Assembly: GCA_964508365.1 (NCBI GenBank)
Contig: CAZDTP010000012.1
Span: 9,573 to 73,572, forward strand
DNA from: an uncultured archaeon
Lineage (GTDB): Archaea > Asgardarchaeota > Lokiarchaeia > Sigyniarchaeales > SOKP01
Length of the DNA stretch: 64,000 nt
Direction of reading: 5' to 3'
Notes under the pieces: model-generated
Databases searched by the model: none
What the model saw: only the letters and a program-made list of their open reading frames with translations
What the model was told of the DNA's origin: nothing
Made by a program: the position numbers and the translations under genes
Shown here: piece by piece, positions 19,236 through 29,080 of the stretch
Numbering within the stretch: position 1 is the first letter of the stretch
How the letters are laid out: the number at the start of each line of letters is the position of its first letter

Positions 19236-19460
19236 ATGGCTGATAAAACATTAAATGCAATCGGTTTAAAATGTCCCATGCCAGTTTTAAAAACGAAGAA
19301 GGAACTGAAAGGAATGACTTCAGGGCAGGTCTTAGAGCTTATTGTCGATGATAAAGGAGCTTTAAAAGACATTCCAGCCTTATTAGGGAAAACTGGGGAT
19401 GAATTACTCGAAACTAATGAATCTGATGATCAAGTAGTTTTCTTGATTAAAAAAGCATGA
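19236..19460 (+). CDS. tusA: TusA/SirA family sulfur carrier
   Basis: LNAIGLKCPMPVLKTKKEL (CPxP), GQVLELIVDD. Confidence 0.92.
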   Translation: MADKTLNAIGLKCPMPVLKTKKELKGMTSGQVLELIVDDKGALKDIPALLGKTGDELLETNESDDQVVFLIKKA

Positions 19461-19488
19461 ACTTGATAATTTATTTGAGGGACGAGCG

Positions 19489-19857
19489 ATGACGACATAT
19501 ACATTCTTTATTAGTACAGAACCTTATAAATTTGAGGTTACAGATTCGCTAATTGAACTTTGTAAGGCTATCATAAAAAAGGGAAACTCCATCAAGGGAT
19601 TATTCTTTTTTGGATCGGGTGTCTACAACTTAAAGGGAGACATTAGTGCTGGAGCAACGATACGCAATTTACCTAAAAAGTTACAAGATTTTGCTCTTGA
19701 GAACAATATTCCTGTATCGGGTTGTAGTACATGGGTAAGTTTAACTGGTCTAAAGGAAGAGGAATTTATTGAAGGTGCTACTGAAGAAGGGTTAGGTGAC
19801 TTTTCAAATTGGTCAGTAGAATCTGATAAAATAATAGTTTTTGGAACGGGGGGATAA
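19489..19857 (+). CDS. dsrE: DsrE/TusD family sulfurtransferase subunit
   Basis: ISTEPY, LFFFGSGVYN, Cys in VSGCSTW at the usual active-site position; first of an E-F-H triplet. Confidence 0.75.
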   Translation: MTTYTFFISTEPYKFEVTDSLIELCKAIIKKGNSIKGLFFFGSGVYNLKGDISAGATIRNLPKKLQDFALENNIPVSGCSTWVSLTGLKEEEFIEGATEEGLGDFSNWSVESDKIIVFGTGG

Positions 19858-19859
19858 TA

Positions 19860-20228
19860 ATGGTGGAATCAGTAGTAATTATAACAGACCAATCACCCGT
19901 AGGTAAGAATTCTGCAGCAGAAGCAATTAGGATTGGATCTGGTTTTGTGGCGTTAGGAGAATATATCAATTGTCAAGTGGTATTTATGGGTGATGCGTTA
20001 TACTTGTTGAATAAAAATGCAGTTCCTAATGCTATTGACATGGATTCTAATGATGAGGTACTTGAAATCGCAGATTTATCAGATTTAGAGTTGTACATAA
20101 TAGATACAGACTTGAAGAATGCTGGCATGACAGAAGATGATCTAATTGAATATGAGAGTTTAAAGATAATATCTATTGAGGAATTATCTGATTTAATAGA
20201 TCAAGCAGATACATGCTTTAGATTCTAA
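19860..20228 (+). CDS. dsrF: DsrF/TusC family protein
   Basis: QSPVG..SAAEAIRIG, VVFMGDALYLL. Confidence 0.75.
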   Translation: MVESVVIITDQSPVGKNSAAEAIRIGSGFVALGEYINCQVVFMGDALYLLNKNAVPNAIDMDSNDEVLEIADLSDLELYIIDTDLKNAGMTEDDLIEYESLKIISIEELSDLIDQADTCFRF

Positions 20229-20241
20229 TGGAGGGAAAAAG

Positions 20242-20571
20242 ATGGAAATAGTATACTTATTCGGATTTAGTGAAAGGACAGGGAACCATTTAGAAAGGCT
20301 ATTGCCCTTATTAAAAGTGCAAATTCAGAAAGGAGCAAATGTCGGTTTAGTCTTTATACACGATGGAGTGATTGGATTAAACACCAATGGATCAATTCCA
20401 AGCAAATTGGAAGAATTATTAAACTCTAATATTACATTAAAAGCCATGGTTCCAGATATGAAAGCACGAGGAATACCCATTGAGAGCTTGCATGATAAAA
20501 TAAAACCAATTGAATATGATGAGTTAGTAGAAATATTAGATAATACTCAAAAAATAATTTCATGGATGTAA
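20242..20571 (+). CDS. dsrH: DsrH/TusB family protein
   Basis: LVFIHDGVIG, PDMKARGI, IEYDELVEIL...KIISW. Confidence 0.8.
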   Translation: MEIVYLFGFSERTGNHLERLLPLLKVQIQKGANVGLVFIHDGVIGLNTNGSIPSKLEELLNSNITLKAMVPDMKARGIPIESLHDKIKPIEYDELVEILDNTQKIISWM

Positions 20572-20695
20572 AATAATCAAAAATTAAAAATTTTTTAATA
20601 ATTAATAAATCAAAAATAACGGTCATAGATTTGACGTCAATAATTAAGAACAACAAAAAAATTAAAAATAAAATAAAAAATAGAAGTGAAAAAAT

Positions 20696-21112
20696 ATGGG
20701 AGAAACAATAAACTATATAGTAAAGGACAAATCATTCGAAAAGTTCGCAATGATGATGCTCCTAGGTACCACAGCAGACGCTATGGAAACAAAATCCAAC
20801 TTTTTCTTCACCTTTTGGGGTTTGAACTTATTAACCAAAAAGTTTAAACCTAAAGTTGCTGGAATGCCTACACCTATGAAGGGTATGGGTGCAAAGATTT
20901 TTAGAAAAAGGATGGCAAAGTTTGGAATTGAAGATCCATGGGGTATGATTAAAGACGCTGTCGAAAATGGTAATATGAAATTATTTCCATGCCAAATGAC
21001 AATGGATTTAATGGGAATTAAGCGAGAAGATATGCTTGATTTTGTTGAAGATCCTGTAGGTGCCGCAACATTCTTAGAAATGTGTGAAGGCGGAAAAATG
21101 GTCTCACTATAA
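20696..21112 (+). CDS. DsrE2-like (DrsE_2) sulfur-relay protein
   Basis: FFFTFWGLNLL, FPCQMTMDLMGI, VGAATFL. Confidence 0.85.
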   Translation: MGETINYIVKDKSFEKFAMMMLLGTTADAMETKSNFFFTFWGLNLLTKKFKPKVAGMPTPMKGMGAKIFRKRMAKFGIEDPWGMIKDAVENGNMKLFPCQMTMDLMGIKREDMLDFVEDPVGAATFLEMCEGGKMVSL

Positions 21113-21165
21113 ATAAATTTTTAAAAATTTTTTTTTTAATTCAAATTAATGAAATAGTGGAAAAA

Positions 21166-21723
21166 ATGTCAGAAACAAAAGAAGAACACCGAGAATTTAA
21201 GACAGATGAAGATTTCGATAAAGATTATTTTAAAAATATTGAAAGAAAGTCAAATATTTGGCAATGTATTCAGTGTGGAACGTGCACGGCCAGCTGTGAG
21301 TCTGGACGTTGGACTGCACTTAAAACAAGATTAATCATTAGAAAAGTATGTTTAGGAGATCTTAGTGTTCTTAAAGACCCCGATATTTGGCTTTGTACAA
21401 CTTGTTATCAATGTTATGAACGCTGTCCTCGTGATGTAAGGCCAACTGATGTAATAATGGAATTAAGAAATTACGCTACTAAATTAGGAAATATTTCGCC
21501 ATCTCACCGAGCGGTTGTTGGCTATTTAAAGAATTTTGGACATGCCGTACCTATAAATGACGAGATTAGAAAACGAAGGGTCGAATTAGGATTAGAAGAA
21601 CTCCCTCCAACTGCGTTTAAATATAAACAAGAGGGAGATGATAAAGATTTAAAGAAATTTGAAGAACATTTGTTTGATCTTCCTCCAGTTAAGGAGGAAA
21701 AAAAGAAGGAAGAGGAGAAGTAA
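21166..21723 (+). CDS. hdrC: Heterodisulfide reductase subunit C
   Basis: CIQCGTCTASC and CTTCYQCYERCP ferredoxin motifs, GHAVP; ORF track starts at GTG 21157. Confidence 0.93.
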   Translation: MSETKEEHREFKTDEDFDKDYFKNIERKSNIWQCIQCGTCTASCESGRWTALKTRLIIRKVCLGDLSVLKDPDIWLCTTCYQCYERCPRDVRPTDVIMELRNYATKLGNISPSHRAVVGYLKNFGHAVPINDEIRKRRVELGLEELPPTAFKYKQEGDDKDLKKFEEHLFDLPPVKEEKKKEEEK

Positions 21724-21726
21724 GAA

Positions 21727-22644
21727 ATGGTAAAAGAACATACATTTTCATTTTTTCTCGGCTGTCTCATGCCAAATAGATATCCCGCAATTGAAAAAGC
21801 AACAAAGTTTGTAATGGGGAAACTTGGATACGAGCTTTTGGACATGGAACGTGCTAGTTGCTGTCCGGCTCCAGGAGTATTTCGATCATTTAATAAATTT
21901 GATTGGATGGTAGCAGGTGCTAGAAATCTCTGCATTGCTGAAAAACTCGATGCAGACATTCTTACGGTTTGTAATGGATGTTTTGGAACATTACAAGAGA
22001 TTAACAAACACTTGAAAGAAAACGAAGATCACAGAGAATTAGTAAATGAAAAATTAAAACTGCTCGGAGATTACGAGTTTAAAGGTACGATTGATGTCCG
22101 GCACATTGCTGAAGTATTAGGGTACGAAGTAGGCCCATGGGGCATAGAAGATCTAATTACACGAAAAGTAAACGCGCATGCTGCTGTACATTATGGGTGT
22201 CATTTTCTAAAACCTACAAGAATTCGAGAGATTGAAAGCTCAGAAGGACCTACCATCATCGAAGATTTTATTGAGGTATTAGGAGTAGAATCTGTTAGAT
22301 TTAAGGAGCAGTTAACTTGTTGTGGTGCTGGTGGAGGTGTAAAAGCGTATTCTGGTGATACCAGTATGACGATTTTTGGAGAAAAAATGAAAAATATTGA
22401 CGAAGTTGAGCCAGATTTTATTTTGGATATATGTCCTTTCTGTCATTTACAATTTGAGACGGGACAAGATTATCTAAATAAAAATAAGGGTTGTAATTAC
22501 GATTATCCAGTTATTCATCTTTCCCAACTCGTTGCTTATTGTATGGGTATGGACCAAGAATTTGTTGGTCTTCAATATCAAATGATGGGAAAGGATTACA
22601 TTTTTGGTGGAGAAGAAGTAAAAAAAGAAGAGGGGTCGATTTAG
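21727..22644 (+). CDS. hdrB: Heterodisulfide reductase subunit B
   Basis: FLGC, SCCPAPG, VCNGC, HYGCH, CCGAGGG, CPFCHLQF (two CCG domains). Confidence 0.95.
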   Translation: MVKEHTFSFFLGCLMPNRYPAIEKATKFVMGKLGYELLDMERASCCPAPGVFRSFNKFDWMVAGARNLCIAEKLDADILTVCNGCFGTLQEINKHLKENEDHRELVNEKLKLLGDYEFKGTIDVRHIAEVLGYEVGPWGIEDLITRKVNAHAAVHYGCHFLKPTRIREIESSEGPTIIEDFIEVLGVESVRFKEQLTCCGAGGGVKAYSGDTSMTIFGEKMKNIDEVEPDFILDICPFCHLQFETGQDYLNKNKGCNYDYPVIHLSQLVAYCMGMDQEFVGLQYQMMGKDYIFGGEEVKKEEGSI

Positions 22645-24660
22645 ATGGCCGTTAAAGAAGATAAAATGGAAAAAAGCAAAACTGAATCGGGAGACTTTGA
22701 AGAACCCAGAATTGGCGTTTTTGTATGTCATTGTGGTCATAACATTGCTGGAACTGTGGATGTCGCAAAAGTGGCAAATTACGCAAAAGAGTTACCAAAT
22801 GTTGTAAAAGCGGAGCATTATATGTTTATGTGTTCAAAACCAGGCGTTCAGATGGTCAAAGATTCGATTAGAGAATTAGGGGTTAATAGAACTGTTGTAG
22901 CAAGCTGTTCAAAAAATCAACATGGTTTGACTTTTGCGAAAGCTATTGCTGAAGAGGGTATTAATAAACACAAACACCAACAAGTAAACATAAGAGAGTA
23001 TTGTAGTTGGGTTCATAAAAAAGACGAGGAAAAAGCAACTGCAAAAGCACTTCGATTGGTCGAAGCTGGAGTAAATCGAGCTCGAAAACTTGAAGATGTA
23101 GAAACTAGACGAGTATCGACGACTAAAGCAGCTTTAGTTATTGGTGGGGGTATCGCTGGCCTTAGATCCGCTCATGATTTGGCAGAATTAGGAATACCCG
23201 TGTTTTTGGTAGAAAAAAATTCTACAATTGGAGGGCACATGACACAATTAAATAAAACATTTCCAACTTTAGAATGTCCCCAATGCTCGATTTCACCTTT
23301 AACTAATGGAGTAGCGAATCATCCTTTAATTGAACTTTATACAAACGCCCAAATTAAGAGCGTTGAGGGTTCATTAGGAAATTTTGAAGTTGAGATTGAA
23401 ATAAAGCCTCGCTATGTTAAAGATAACTGTACTTCTTGTGGCGAATGTTCTTTACACTGTCCAGTAGAAGTGCCTAGTGAATGGGACAAAGGAATGTCTA
23501 TGCGAAACGCTATTTACAAAGCATATCCGCAAGCAATTCCCGCAACATTCGTAAGGGACAAAAAATCTTGTATTGAGTGTAATACATGTATTAACATATG
23601 TCCAGTCCAAGCGATTGATTTTTCGATGGAAACTGAGACTAAAACGGTGAAAGTTGGTTCGATTGTAGTTGCTGTGGGATATGATGAATACGATCCTACG
23701 GAAATAGAACCATATCATTATGGAAAAGAGGGATATGAAGATGTTATTACTCAATTAAAATTAGAACGAATGTTATCACCAACATCTCTTACTAATTCTG
23801 AAGTGTTGCGACCATCTGACGGAAAACTACCAAAGAGTATTGTAATGATTCAATGCGTGGGTAGTAGAAACGATCAAGTTGGCAATCAGTATTGTACTGG
23901 TGTATGCTGCAAATTTGCGATAAAAAACGCTCGAATTGTAAAAGAAATGTATCCTGATACCGATGTGACGATTTGTTATATAGATATACGAACTCCAGGA
24001 TTAAATTTCGAAGAGTTATATAAATCTGCTCAAGAAGTTGGAGTCAGATTCATCCGAGGTAGACCTTCGGAAATTATTAAAGACCCTATAAATGGAGAAT
24101 TAAAAGTTATAGTAGAGGACACCTTAAGCATGACACCTTTACAATTAAAAGCTGATTTGGTTGTGTTGTCAGCAGCGATGGTGCCACCCGAAGGAATAGG
24201 ACCACTTGGTTCTAAGCTTAAAGTTTTACGTTCCAAGGAAGGTTTTTTAAAAGAATTTCATATTAAGATGAACCCTACATTGAGTAGTAAAGGAGGAATT
24301 TTCTTAGCGGGTGCGATACAAGGACCAAAAGACATTTCTGAAACCGTAGCGCACGCGGGGAGTGCTGCTGCTTTAGCTGCTGCACCTCTAGTTAAAGGTT
24401 ATATAGAAAAGGAAATGTTGGTACCAGTTATAGATTATGATTTATGCGTTAATTGTGGAATTTGTAAGACCATTTGCGCACCAGCCGCAATCGATATTGA
24501 TGATAATGGAAGACCATCAGTCAATGAGATAGCGTGTAGATCATGTGGAATGTGTATGCCAAGTTGTCCGACAATGGCGATTCAACTGATTAATTTTACA
24601 GAGGATCAAATGCATGATGAAATAATTGCCGTATCGGGCGGAGGTGCCGTGTGCGAATGA
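22645..24660 (+). CDS. hdrA: Heterodisulfide reductase subunit A (flavin-bifurcating, all-Cys form)
   Basis: RIGVFVCHCG, NIRE.CSWVH, VIGGGIAG, KTFPTLECPQC, IQCVGSR...YCTGVCC, GPKDI, C-terminal ferredoxin motifs. Confidence 0.96.
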   Translation: MAVKEDKMEKSKTESGDFEEPRIGVFVCHCGHNIAGTVDVAKVANYAKELPNVVKAEHYMFMCSKPGVQMVKDSIRELGVNRTVVASCSKNQHGLTFAKAIAEEGINKHKHQQVNIREYCSWVHKKDEEKATAKALRLVEAGVNRARKLEDVETRRVSTTKAALVIGGGIAGLRSAHDLAELGIPVFLVEKNSTIGGHMTQLNKTFPTLECPQCSISPLTNGVANHPLIELYTNAQIKSVEGSLGNFEVEIEIKPRYVKDNCTSCGECSLHCPVEVPSEWDKGMSMRNAIYKAYPQAIPATFVRDKKSCIECNTCINICPVQAIDFSMETETKTVKVGSIVVAVGYDEYDPTEIEPYHYGKEGYEDVITQLKLERMLSPTSLTNSEVLRPSDGKLPKSIVMIQCVGSRNDQVGNQYCTGVCCKFAIKNARIVKEMYPDTDVTICYIDIRTPGLNFEELYKSAQEVGVRFIRGRPSEIIKDPINGELKVIVEDTLSMTPLQLKADLVVLSAAMVPPEGIGPLGSKLKVLRSKEGFLKEFHIKMNPTLSSKGGIFLAGAIQGPKDISETVAHAGSAAALAAAPLVKGYIEKEMLVPVIDYDLCVNCGICKTICAPAAIDIDDNGRPSVNEIACRSCGMCMPSCPTMAIQLINFTEDQMHDEIIAVSGGGAVCE

Positions 24661-25109
24661 GTGATTGCGAAACTCCTGATGAATATGTTCAAGAAAGGAT
24701 TCAAAATGTTGTTGTATTCATGTGCAACGAATGTGGTCAAGGAAGCGCAAATACTGCGGGTGTCGCTCGAATGTCGTACGATGCTGCAATTAGAATAATT
24801 AGAGTTCAATGCACGGGTCAAGTCGGACCGATTCAGATTATGGAAGCGTTAAATAACGGTGCTGATGCAGTCGCTTGCGTAGGATGTTGTTTAGGCGCCT
24901 GTCATTTTTTTAATGGTAATATAATTTCGATGCACAGAATTAAATTGATGAAAAAACTCTTTAAAGAGTTAGGTTATAGCGATCAATTTGTAAACCAATA
25001 CACTTCGAGAGCTGCGGAGGGTGAAACTGCTGTTGGCGATTTCGAAGATATTATAGACCGATTAACAACTGCAATTCTAGATAAGGGGACGATAAAAGAT
25101 GGATGTTAA
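24657..25109 (+). CDS. mvhD: MvhD-type [2Fe-2S] subunit
   Basis: FMCNEC, RIIRVQCTGQV, GADAV, GC..GACHF..GN; ATG overlaps hdrA TGA. Confidence 0.9.
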   Translation: MSDCETPDEYVQERIQNVVVFMCNECGQGSANTAGVARMSYDAAIRIIRVQCTGQVGPIQIMEALNNGADAVACVGCCLGACHFFNGNIISMHRIKLMKKLFKELGYSDQFVNQYTSRAAEGETAVGDFEDIIDRLTTAILDKGTIKDGC

Positions 25110-26340
25110 AGTATTCCAATTTAACGGTTGTAATAAGTGCTTCAATGAGACTGTATTACTTAAACAAGACGCTAAATATAAAGTCGAGTTTGTCTCTGAT
25201 CCAAAGAATTGGAAAGGAGAAAAAGTTGACATATCAGTTATTACAGGGTATTTACTTCCTAACGATTTGGAGCACGTGGAACGTATAAAGAACAATTCAA
25301 ATAAAGTAATTGCTTATGGAGACTGTCCAGCTACAGGTGGAGTATTTGCTTTAGCAAATCAAAAAGGGCACGACGTTAAACCTTTAGCAACCTTAATTGA
25401 AGGTTCAAGTAGTGTATATGGATGTTTAGGCGAAATTGAAGAATTAAAATTAGCGATTGACGGAAGAGATGTTCCAATATTAAAAAATTTATGTCAAATT
25501 TGCTCCAGAAAAGCAACATGTGACTATTTAGAAAAAATTAATAGACAAATTGAATTAGAGGATTCTGAAACATGTTTTAACGACTTAGGTTTTCTCTGTA
25601 GTGGCTTTACTGCGACTGAGTGTAAAGAAAAATGTATTGATTACAATACTCCTTGTAGAGGTTGTAAACCAAGCATAGATCGTTCTGGAATTCGCATGTT
25701 AGCAATGTTCGGCACATTAGCAGGGAACATTGAAATTGCTACCGAACATTCAGTAAAGGGAGCAACTGACAAATTAGGCGACGCTGACGACGATCTAACA
25801 GACAGCTTACCTGATATCGTCGGCAATTTTTTCAGATTTACATTACCTACTTCTGGTTTGCCAAAAGGTAAAATCTCTTCCTCAGGAACTTTATTAGAAG
25901 ATGTTTTCATTGGTAGGCTGATTGAGGAGATCCCTTTGATAACCGGACTTATAGGGGGGGCTAAATCAATATCTTTTACGCTTAAATTCATAAAGGCATA
26001 CGAGGAAGCAAATCAAATAGAAGTAAGCGAACAAACGAAAAAATACCGGAACGAGCTCCTACAATTAGAAAAAGACCTACAAGATGCTATAATTAAAGAA
26101 GATGCATCGAAATACAAAGAGATTACAAATAAAATCCGATTTATTGCTGGAAATATGAACTTATCAAACGTATTTTTTGGTGGATTCAAGTCAATTATCG
26201 ATCCTAACGATGACTTTAACAATTATAAAACCCATGTTTTTGATGTGGTGGATGGAACCTATAAAAATGGTTCGATAGAATATACCATTAATCCAGATGG
26301 TATTATAAAAGAAATTAAAATTAACGAGGAATTATTATGA
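25099..26340 (+). CDS. MvhG-like Fe-S protein fused to a degenerate [NiFe]-hydrogenase large-subunit fragment
   Basis: aa 1-252: GCNKC, AYGDC.ATGG, GCL, CQIC, CF..G.LC.G....C...C...PCRGC, GNFFRFTLP; aa about 265-320 resemble the MvhA L1 region without its Cys. Confidence 0.8.
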   Translation: MDVKVFQFNGCNKCFNETVLLKQDAKYKVEFVSDPKNWKGEKVDISVITGYLLPNDLEHVERIKNNSNKVIAYGDCPATGGVFALANQKGHDVKPLATLIEGSSSVYGCLGEIEELKLAIDGRDVPILKNLCQICSRKATCDYLEKINRQIELEDSETCFNDLGFLCSGFTATECKEKCIDYNTPCRGCKPSIDRSGIRMLAMFGTLAGNIEIATEHSVKGATDKLGDADDDLTDSLPDIVGNFFRFTLPTSGLPKGKISSSGTLLEDVFIGRLIEEIPLITGLIGGAKSISFTLKFIKAYEEANQIEVSEQTKKYRNELLQLEKDLQDAIIKEDASKYKEITNKIRFIAGNMNLSNVFFGGFKSIIDPNDDFNNYKTHVFDVVDGTYKNGSIEYTINPDGIIKEIKINEELL

Positions 26341-28843: not shown

Positions 28844-29080
28844 ATGAATTTCGACCAAGAATTAAACGTGTGTGGCTTAGTTTGTCCCGTACCTGCATTG
28901 AAAACCAAGAAACAACTCATGAAGATGCGACCAGGTACAGTGTTAAAAGTAATAACAGACTATAAACCAGCATCAGAATCAGTTCCACGTGATTTAGCAA
29001 AAACTAAGCACAAGCACTTAGGAACTGATTTTCTCGACGATGATGAGCTATGGCACATCTATTTTGAAGCAGTAAAATAA
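28844..29080 (+). CDS. tusA: Second TusA/SirA family sulfur carrier
   Basis: LNVCGLVCPVPALKTKKQL, GTVLKVITD. Confidence 0.9.
   Translation: MNFDQELNVCGLVCPVPALKTKKQLMKMRPGTVLKVITDYKPASESVPRDLAKTKHKHLGTDFLDDDELWHIYFEAVK

Follow-up and report, generated by a model that had tools for sequence, protein, structure and literature searches.

An MvhG-type small subunit fused to a remnant of the [NiFe] hydrogenase large subunit in heterodisulfide reductase operons of Asgard archaea

The closest homologous system to the one described here is MvhAGD/VhuAGD-HdrABC (structures 5ODC and 9SW2), in which a [NiFe] hydrogenase is joined to a soluble heterodisulfide reductase (Hdr). In the Elp-Hdr complex of Methanothermobacter marburgensis (ElpABC-HdrABC), the arm that donates electrons to HdrABC is independent of nickel: ElpA is a truncated FdhA that serves as a scaffold and has no cofactor, ElpB is a flavoprotein of the FdhB/FrhB type, ElpC is of the MvhD type, and electrons pass from ElpB to this MvhD homologue (PMC12350162). 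Here we describe a 413-amino-acid (aa) protein, P0001, from an uncultured archaeon of the Lokiarchaeia (GenBank assembly GCA_964508365.1, contig CAZDTP010000012.1, positions 9,573 to 73,572; this whole stretch of 64,000 nucleotides is the window). Its aa 1-259 are an MvhG/VhuG-type small subunit with ligands for all three [4Fe-4S] clusters, and the ~150 residues at its C-terminus are what remains of a [NiFe] large subunit from group 3 (VhuA/MvhA-like). Missing from this relic are the first ~40 residues of the large subunit, the bulk of its interior, the DPCxxC segment at the C-terminus, and the two cysteines of the nickel-binding RxCGxC motif (L1). We think that the fusion protein is probably a nickel-free electron-transfer subunit (a wire or adaptor) of a soluble Hdr complex.

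As in Mvh-Hdr, there are ligand sets for three [4Fe-4S] clusters, the genes for MvhD and HdrABC lie directly upstream, and the genes are in the order D-G-(A). Also, the best sequence matches of the relic are large subunits of the VhuA/MvhA type. Unlike in Mvh-Hdr, the large subunit has been cut from about 440-480 to about 150 aa and is fused to the small subunit; the cysteines of the Ni-Fe site are all missing; there is no maturation-dependent C-terminus; and a gene of the FrhB family stands in place of the rest of mvhA/mvhB. The likeness to Elp-Hdr lies in a donor arm that would be free of nickel, the presence of FrhB-type and MvhD-type partners, and a truncated catalytic subunit as the scaffold. 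However, the relic comes from a [NiFe] large subunit instead of the molybdopterin enzyme FdhA, and Elp has no hydrogenase small subunit. Elp is found in methanogens while the fusion is found in Asgard archaea, and this locus falls outside the definition of Elp. Elp-Hdr is the closest functional analogue, with a resemblance that we would call analogy and not homology. The first-pass annotation of the window, which a model made from the sequence alone, had likened the protein to a nickel-free Elp-Hdr that was built from different parts; the truncated subunit derives from a hydrogenase here and from FdhA in Elp.

The small-subunit part is recognizable by sequence and by structure. It matches PF01058 (Oxidored_q6) with E = 2.3e-11 (43.9 bits, compared to a cut-off of 27), and its matches among PDB sequences include the MvhG/VhuG chains 9sw2_E (E = 1.4e-15) and 5odc_E (E = 6.7e-15). 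In an AlphaFold 2 (AF2) model of the fusion protein, residues 1-259 match the fold of 5odc_E (Z = 21.0 over 245 residues, with an rmsd (root-mean-square deviation) equal to 3.2 Å, using VIA), and Foldseek gives E = 7e-17. Matches to the FrhG type are weak (E = 0.0016 for TIGR03294 and E = 0.97 for 3zfs_B). Against NCBIfam's equivalog model for VhuG (NF045875), the protein scores 47.8 bits, versus a cut-off of 450 bits, which marks it as a divergent relative and not an orthologue.

P0001 has cysteines at positions 11, 14, 76, 109, 132, 135, 141, 159, 167, 175, 179, 186, and 189. The first four are the ligands of the proximal cluster. The medial and distal clusters have C132, C135, C159, C167, C175, C179, C186, and C189, and the pattern of these eight (CxxC...C...C...CxxxC...CxxC) is in register with the MvhG/VhuG chains. 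We aligned 60 diverse members of the family, with identities down to 31-37%, and all twelve ligands are invariant or at least 90% conserved. For example, C76 and C109 are invariant, and for C11 and C14 the conservation is 90% or more. The other cysteine, C141, is invariant only within the close subfamily. An MvhG-type small subunit with twelve patterned cysteines was already part of the first-pass annotation, and all twelve are where it placed them, but it missed C141.

For the rest of the protein, we conclude that it originated from a large subunit because five tests concur: a match to a hidden Markov model (HMM), a database-wide profile search, a profile-profile comparison with null controls, a fold search, and the neighbours found with a language model. 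Using the single sequence, aa 266-323 match positions 41-97 of NCBIfam's VhuA model (E = 0.0044). For the database-wide search, 116 homologues were the basis for a profile of aa 255-413, which we ran against 1.84 billion protein representatives of any length. This gave 24 proteins, most of which are 403-421-aa fusions with the same architecture or fragments of such fusions. The profile also found P0144, a 151-aa fragment of a PF00374 protein with the motif RICGAC, in the same register (E = 4.8e-4); further alignments, weak and short, are to two long proteins of 1301 and 2087 aa. The neighbours of aa 260-413 according to the language model include three clusters of PF00374 (0.86-0.87); these values are below the tool's reliability line, and we take them as a lead only.

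For the profile-profile comparison, we used hhalign to compare the 60-member alignment to 28 genuine large subunits from Asgard genomes. The match (probability 93.5, P = 2.2e-7, score 54.8) has 64-66 columns without gaps and places aa 266-331 on residues 42-107 of the large subunit. As null controls, we used 30 column shuffles and the reversed alignment, which scored 9.7-18.5 (P of at least 0.09). When the large subunits are considered one at a time, 23 of the 28 share this register (P from 1e-7 to 1e-3), and the best matches are Asgard proteins of the VhuA type. Overall, four independent comparisons (among them the VhuA model, the database-wide profile, and the single large subunits) give the same register.

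In this register, the conserved residues of the relic correspond to conserved motifs of large subunits: R273, E276/E277, P279-x-I281, E302, and R317, which are invariant or nearly so, align with GR, EE, PRI, the glutamate of the A-x-E-x-A stretch after L1, and LR, respectively. At the position of L1, RICGIC has become LIGGAK in P0001, so both cysteines are gone and the central glycine is retained. The corresponding motif is TIYGSK in the Thor-type members, RVFGVR in P0131, and RIYGSR in P0134, and the latter two retain both the arginine and the glycine of RxCGxC. These motifs form a series of decay from RICGIC through RVFGVR or RIYGSR to TIYGSK or LIGGAK. P0001 has no cysteines after C189 and no DPCxxC motif (L5). 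Across the 60 members, the relic contains 0-3 cysteines, none of which is conserved, and it has no conserved histidines either.

Most of what the first-pass annotation had noticed in this region agrees with these results: the gapless match of aa ~265-320 to the N-terminal helices of the large subunit, the replacement of RxCGxC by LIGGAK, and the loss of DPCxxC. It had also suggested a search for intermediate stages of loss. Neither a longer relic nor a split form is among the 24 proteins that match the family profile, but P0131 and P0134 are intermediate in the L1 motif itself.

The fold of the domain extends the match to the C-terminus of the protein. With 116 close homologues as the input, AF2 gave a model with a mean confidence (pLDDT) of 53, while with the diverse 60-sequence alignment, the pLDDT was 93.4 and the predicted TM score (pTM) was 0.91. 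A model of the same family from the ESM Atlas agrees with the AF2 model (TM score of 0.90); its cluster has 203 members, all from Archaea and mostly from Promethearchaeota. When Foldseek and VIA are run on the whole model, the MvhG part dominates, and so all of the listed matches are small subunits. We also ran a VIA-wide fold search, which is independent of Foldseek and covers 48,161 PDB representatives. The relic matched FrhA (6qgt_A; Z = 11.9, 149 residues aligned, rmsd 2.5 Å, chain residues 41-404), NDUFS2 (7zm7_C; Z = 10.1, 149 residues, 2.8 Å, 126-465), NuoD (8qby_D; Z = 10.1, 151 residues, 2.6 Å, 39-378), MbsL (6u8y_l; Z = 9.6, 150 residues, 2.6 Å, 38-356), HyhL (5yxy_A; Z = 9.2, 144 residues, 2.6 Å, 43-379), and NdhH (7wfg_H; Z = 8.7, 146 residues, 2.5 Å, 50-359). 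For HyhL and NdhH, the aligned part of the model is residues 264-413 and 265-413. For the other four, the range in the model begins earlier (at 7, 15, 33, or 83), and the aligned length is still 149-151 residues. Among the top 50 matches, no family other than large subunits covers aa 264-413.

The predicted structure supports the view that the whole ~150-aa domain is a shrunken core of the large subunit and not just the two helices of L1. With 144-151 residues aligned, about two thirds of the full-length fold (about 400-600 aa) is absent. The first-pass annotation had retained only the L1-region helices, which are indeed present, but the match by fold spans all of aa 264-413. (The annotation had named the lack of any profile or structural match between aa 255-413 and large subunits as the result that would count against its proposal, and we found matches of both kinds.) Its reading of the last 25 residues did not hold up. 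These had been compared to the first beta-hairpin of the large subunit, which would be a permutation, and we rejected this: the comparison gives P = 0.22, and the matched chains begin at residues 38-50 (except for NDUFS2, whose start at 126 we attribute to a longer N-terminus). A better fit for it is the late hairpin of the large subunit, which is collinear: aa 395-408 align, albeit weakly (P of 0.008-0.05), with large-subunit residues 382-395.

The fold matches bring in two other known systems. FrhA is the top match, and FrhABG (6QGT, 4OMF) also combines a small subunit with an FrhB partner. Unlike FrhABG, the locus in the window has a small subunit of the MvhG type and not the FrhG type, lacks a catalytic FrhA, and is coupled to MvhD-Hdr. 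NuoB/NuoD of complex I and the corresponding subunits of Mbx/MBS are, like the fusion, a hydrogenase pair without the Ni-Fe site that kept the proximal cluster and the interface, and their large-subunit homologues (NuoD, NDUFS2, NdhH, and MbsL) match the relic with Z = 8.7-10.1. However, those proteins are full length (about 370-430 aa), are separate chains within membrane complexes, and originated from group 4, while the fusion is of group 3 origin and soluble, with two thirds of the large subunit deleted and the subunits fused.

We used the 60-member alignment to ask how well conserved the relic is. Over the relic, the mean pairwise identity is 0.44 in aa 262-331 and 0.42 in aa 332-413; the proximal-cluster domain has 0.40, and the medial/distal domain has 0.53. 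Since the relic's identity is on par with that of the Fe-S part, the relic is functional and not decaying sequence, and purifying selection is as strong on the relic as on the Fe-S part. The most conserved stretch of the relic includes G351, N352, S356, N357, and G362, and F363 is nearly invariant.

The orthologues are 403-431 aa long. Among 300 sampled Asgard genomes, the domain is present in 43, and it is present in 22 of the 90 high-quality genomes. The window's family is where it is concentrated (33/68), with further cases in three other families. In these genomes, the domain occurs once per genome and always within reading frames of 412-452 aa, except for fragments at the ends of contigs. 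The orthologue in Promethearchaeum syntrophicum is DSAG12_01149, which is annotated as hypothetical. We considered P0124 as a possible stand-alone relic, but it is on a broken 1.1-kb contig, with the tail of MvhG in frame upstream. P0132 lies on a 774-bp contig, behind an overlapping open reading frame (ORF).

In the window, the start of the fusion gene overlaps mvhD by 11 nucleotides, and its end overlaps the downstream gene by 4 nucleotides (Table 1). Within the fusion gene, the linker takes the place of three things: the stop codon of mvhG, the gap between the two genes, and the start of the large subunit (about 40 codons). According to Pfam and NCBIfam, the genes of this co-oriented cluster are tusA-dsrE-dsrE/F-like-dsrH-dsrE2-hdrC-hdrB-hdrA-mvhD-fusion gene-FrhB::GltD-tusA. 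The hdrCBA stretch has matches to TIGR03290 (175.9 bits) and TIGR03288 (362 bits), each above its cut-off, and to the HdrA2/HdrA profile (E = 1e-221). In the 821-aa FrhB::GltD protein, the FrhB_N and FrhB_C halves are split by a complete GltD/NfnB-like unit (Fer4_20 and Pyr_redox_2), and this protein is likely to be the electron-input subunit.

Table 1. Features of the fusion gene and of the surrounding cluster, with positions in the window
Feature	Coordinates	Strand	Evidence
tusA, dsrE, dsrE/F-like, dsrH, dsrE2: sulfur-relay set upstream of hdrCBA	19236..21112	+	Pfam TusA, DsrE x2, DsrH, DrsE_2
hdrC, hdrB, hdrA: methanogen-type soluble heterodisulfide reductase	21157..24660	+	NCBIfam matches
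mvhD: [2Fe-2S] connector to HdrA	24651..25109	+	PF02662, E 6e-31; VhuD, E 1e-26
Fusion gene: MvhG-type small subunit and large-subunit relic	25099..26340	+	413 aa (P0001), ORF call
MvhG/VhuG-like small subunit, aa 1-259	25099..25875	+	PF01058, PDB sequence match, fold match
Short linker, aa 260-265	25876..25893	+	MvhG alignment ends at aa 259; large-subunit homology begins at aa 266
Helices homologous to large-subunit residues ~42-107 (L1 region and the long helix after it), aa 266-331	25894..26091	+	hhalign, VhuA HMM, P0144
LIGGAK at the position of the Ni-binding RxCGxC (L1), aa 284-289	25948..25965	+	hhalign register
Rest of the relic (second helix pair, invariant G-N-x-x-L-S-N...GGF loop, three-stranded sheet), aa 332-413	26092..26337	+	recognizable by fold only
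FrhB-family protein with inserted GltD/NfnB-like NAD(P)H flavoenzyme, 821 aa	26337..28802	+	Pfam FrhB_N, Fer4_20, Pyr_redox_2, FrhB_C
Second tusA, after the FrhB::GltD gene	28844-29080		Pfam

We compared the window to eight related loci. The order hdrA-mvhD-fusion is constant across all nine loci, with mvhD immediately upstream of the fusion gene every time, and neither the operon in the window nor the other 8 loci contain a large-subunit gene that matches PF00374 in Pfam. In Methanothermobacter, the canonical operon order is mvhDGA(B). The fusion gene appears to occupy the place of mvhG-mvhA in that order. The next gene after the fusion is of the FrhB family in 8 of the 9 loci. It is an FrhB::GltD fusion (819-826 aa) in the window, in L036 (P. 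syntrophicum), and in L041 and L042, and it is a plain FrhB (345-356 aa) in L035, L039, L040, and L043. Because Thor-type relatives have the plain FrhB of 345-356 aa at the same position, the insertion of GltD is lineage-specific. Genes for TusA and DsrE accompany the cluster, and the P. syntrophicum locus has the same sulfur-relay set.

The most economical explanation for the fusion protein is a wire or adaptor, because the operon has no large subunit and because an FrhB-family gene is next to the fusion gene in nearly all of the loci. This was also the view of the first-pass annotation, which had proposed a Ni-independent Fe-S wire, and it fits with the loss of all four cysteine ligands of the Ni-Fe site. 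In the scenario that we favour, the genes of an ancestral mvhG-mvhA pair became one, and of the catalytic subunit only the scaffold that packs against the small subunit was left. The resulting protein is predicted to be unable to bind Ni-Fe or to activate H2. Instead, the FrhB or FrhB::GltD flavoprotein would be where electrons come in, with F420H2 or NAD(P)H as their source. The fusion would wire this flavoprotein to the [2Fe-2S] cluster of MvhD and then to the bifurcating flavin (FAD) of HdrA, and the flow might be reversed. We favour a path through all three clusters because all of the ligands of the proximal cluster are retained. The relic might shield the proximal cluster, or form a docking surface for FrhB that is a port to this cluster, or both. 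At the other end, HdrBC might act on a disulfide or persulfide that is delivered by the TusA/DsrE relay. A physical complex of the fusion protein with MvhD-HdrA and FrhB, with electron transfer from F420H2 or NAD(P)H, would be in keeping with the conserved, overlapping gene order and the presence of genes for F420. (The organism probably makes F420, because CofG, CofD, and CofE score above their curated cut-offs in this genome.)

The same genome encodes two genuine NiFe(Se) large subunits, on other contigs, making the fusion a paralogous module rather than the sole hydrogenase of the organism. Both of these proteins have an intact RxCGxC motif. The large subunit on contig C8 (in L001, C8:45501-48737, minus strand) has 434 aa and lacks DPCxxC, and a short ORF just downstream reads FDC-TGA-LSCAAH. 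This is a split large subunit of the VhuA/VhuU type, with an in-frame TGA that probably encodes selenocysteine within the equivalent of DPCxxC. DPCxxC is missing from the main ORF for 12 of the 28 Asgard large subunits, and selenoproteins of the VhuU type have reportedly been seen in Lokiarchaeota. The adjacent small subunit (L001:1865-3181, minus strand) has 438 aa, and the Fe-S region of P0001 aligns to it twice, at ~180-225 and at ~276-424, which suggests, from the alignment, a duplicated ferredoxin-like cluster domain. The large subunit on contig C2 (L002, C2:97440-100697) has 444 aa with RICGLC and DPCISC. Its neighbours are a 128-aa ORF that has no match in Pfam and an MvhD-like protein carrying a 4Fe-4S domain at its N-terminus. 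There is no canonical small-subunit gene within the 3.2 kb around the C2 large subunit.

Some of our results weigh against the wire reading or against the hydrogenase origin of the relic that it builds on. Given aa 255-413, Pfam's model for PF00374 does not match, and at E <= 10 there was only noise (DUF272 and YbaB). Similarly, when we searched the PDB sequences with the family HMM and hmmsearch, no large subunit was found at E <= 10, with PTS IIB and designed proteins at the top of the list by chance. Sequence homology to the PF00374 family is confined to aa 266-331: aa 332-394 have no sequence-level match to large subunits, and the resemblance of aa 330-379 to the L3 region (HP....PGG) is visual only (P = 0.27). 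Also, the domain is mostly helical, and the tool cautions that Z scores such as its 9-12 can be generic. As for the electron input, in L038 (G210:C1:3065000-3075500, from a complete 4.36-Mb Asgard genome), FrhB is replaced by a 142-aa ORF that resembles 4Fe-4S ferredoxins and by DsrE. (Such an arrangement might represent an input module of a third type, or else one that has degraded.) The silence of Pfam and of the PDB search, along with the tendency of helical bundles to give middling Z scores, might indicate that the C-terminal domain is an unrelated helical add-on that resembles large subunits by chance or convergence. We consider this to be very unlikely. The first-pass annotation had proposed a profile search against PF00374, and although the Pfam model found nothing, the profile-profile comparison with Asgard large subunits did, with clean nulls. 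Furthermore, a chance resemblance would have to account for one register from four independent comparisons, for an agreement that holds motif by motif (including the R and G of RxCGxC in some members), for the fact that every fold match over aa 264-413 is from one superfamily, and for a gene order of mvhD-G-A.

Another explanation accepts the origin of the relic and gives it a different role. Together with the proximal cluster, the relic might form a new pocket for binding or catalysis, as NuoD/NuoB do for quinone. A sulfur-carrier protein or a small redox substrate might be what this pocket binds, or else FrhB might dock there specifically and feed electrons into the proximal cluster. This would fit with a relic that is as conserved as the Fe-S domains and whose most conserved stretch (G351-F363) has no detectable counterpart in large subunits, with NuoD and NDUFS2 of complex I being among the fold matches, and with the four cysteines of the proximal cluster, whose retention is sensible only if the cluster is in use. 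But the relic has no conserved cysteine or histidine for a new metal or persulfide site, and a structural cap would explain the conservation equally well. We think that a new pocket is unlikely. A bolder proposal, which we rate as quite improbable, is that the relic and the proximal cluster are a second, independent conversion of a hydrogenase to a redox site for something besides H2, after that of complex I. The emptied face of the active site would be a port of entry at which electrons pass between the proximal cluster and either FrhB or a sulfur species bound to TusA/DsrE, and the TusA/DsrE-linked Hdr of Asgard archaea would then be an undescribed bifurcating and sulfur-reducing enzyme, driven by F420H2 or NAD(P)H and independent of H2. 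Alternatively, the fusion protein could serve a real hydrogenase, either with a large subunit that is encoded elsewhere or with the remainder of a split one, in which case the relic would be the N-terminal piece. The genome does encode two genuine large subunits, and split large subunits (VhuA/VhuU) are present in it. However, with both L1 cysteines gone, no complementing fragment could complete the Ni-Fe site. Both of the genuine large subunits have their own intact L1, and the one on C8 has a small-subunit gene beside it. The fold match reaches almost to the C-terminus of the large subunit, which means that the relic represents the entire subunit with internal deletions instead of its N-terminal piece, and there is no orphan fragment of a large subunit in the 9 operons. 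We give this explanation almost no credence.

Other fusions of MvhG-like proteins are present in bacteria in the ESM Atlas: a cNMP-binding domain with Oxidored_q6 (627 aa, Thermodesulfobacteriota) and FlpD/MvhD with Oxidored_q6 (483 aa, Myxococcota). These hint that hydrogenase small subunits were reused as wires elsewhere too.

Our searches of the full-text literature found no description of the fusion of MvhG with a large-subunit relic. A preprint about Nerearchaeum models the TusA/DsrE-linked Hdr as coupled to a group 3c hydrogenase (10.1101/2025.07.22.663070). The relic is a rare case where the end-state is visible: the catalytic subunit of a metalloenzyme has been whittled down to the piece that its partner needs, which parallels ElpA. 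The fusion complex is also a defined target for cryo-electron microscopy and biochemistry. More broadly, clusters similar to Hdr/Mvh are usually taken to be linked to H2 in metabolic reconstructions of Asgard archaea, as in the Nerearchaeum preprint, and hydrogen syntrophy is central to models of eukaryogenesis. With a catalytic partner that is now a stub without cysteines, and with the gene for a flavoprotein next to it, this operon (including its copy in the cultured P. syntrophicum) most likely draws its electrons from F420H2 or NAD(P)H and not from H2.

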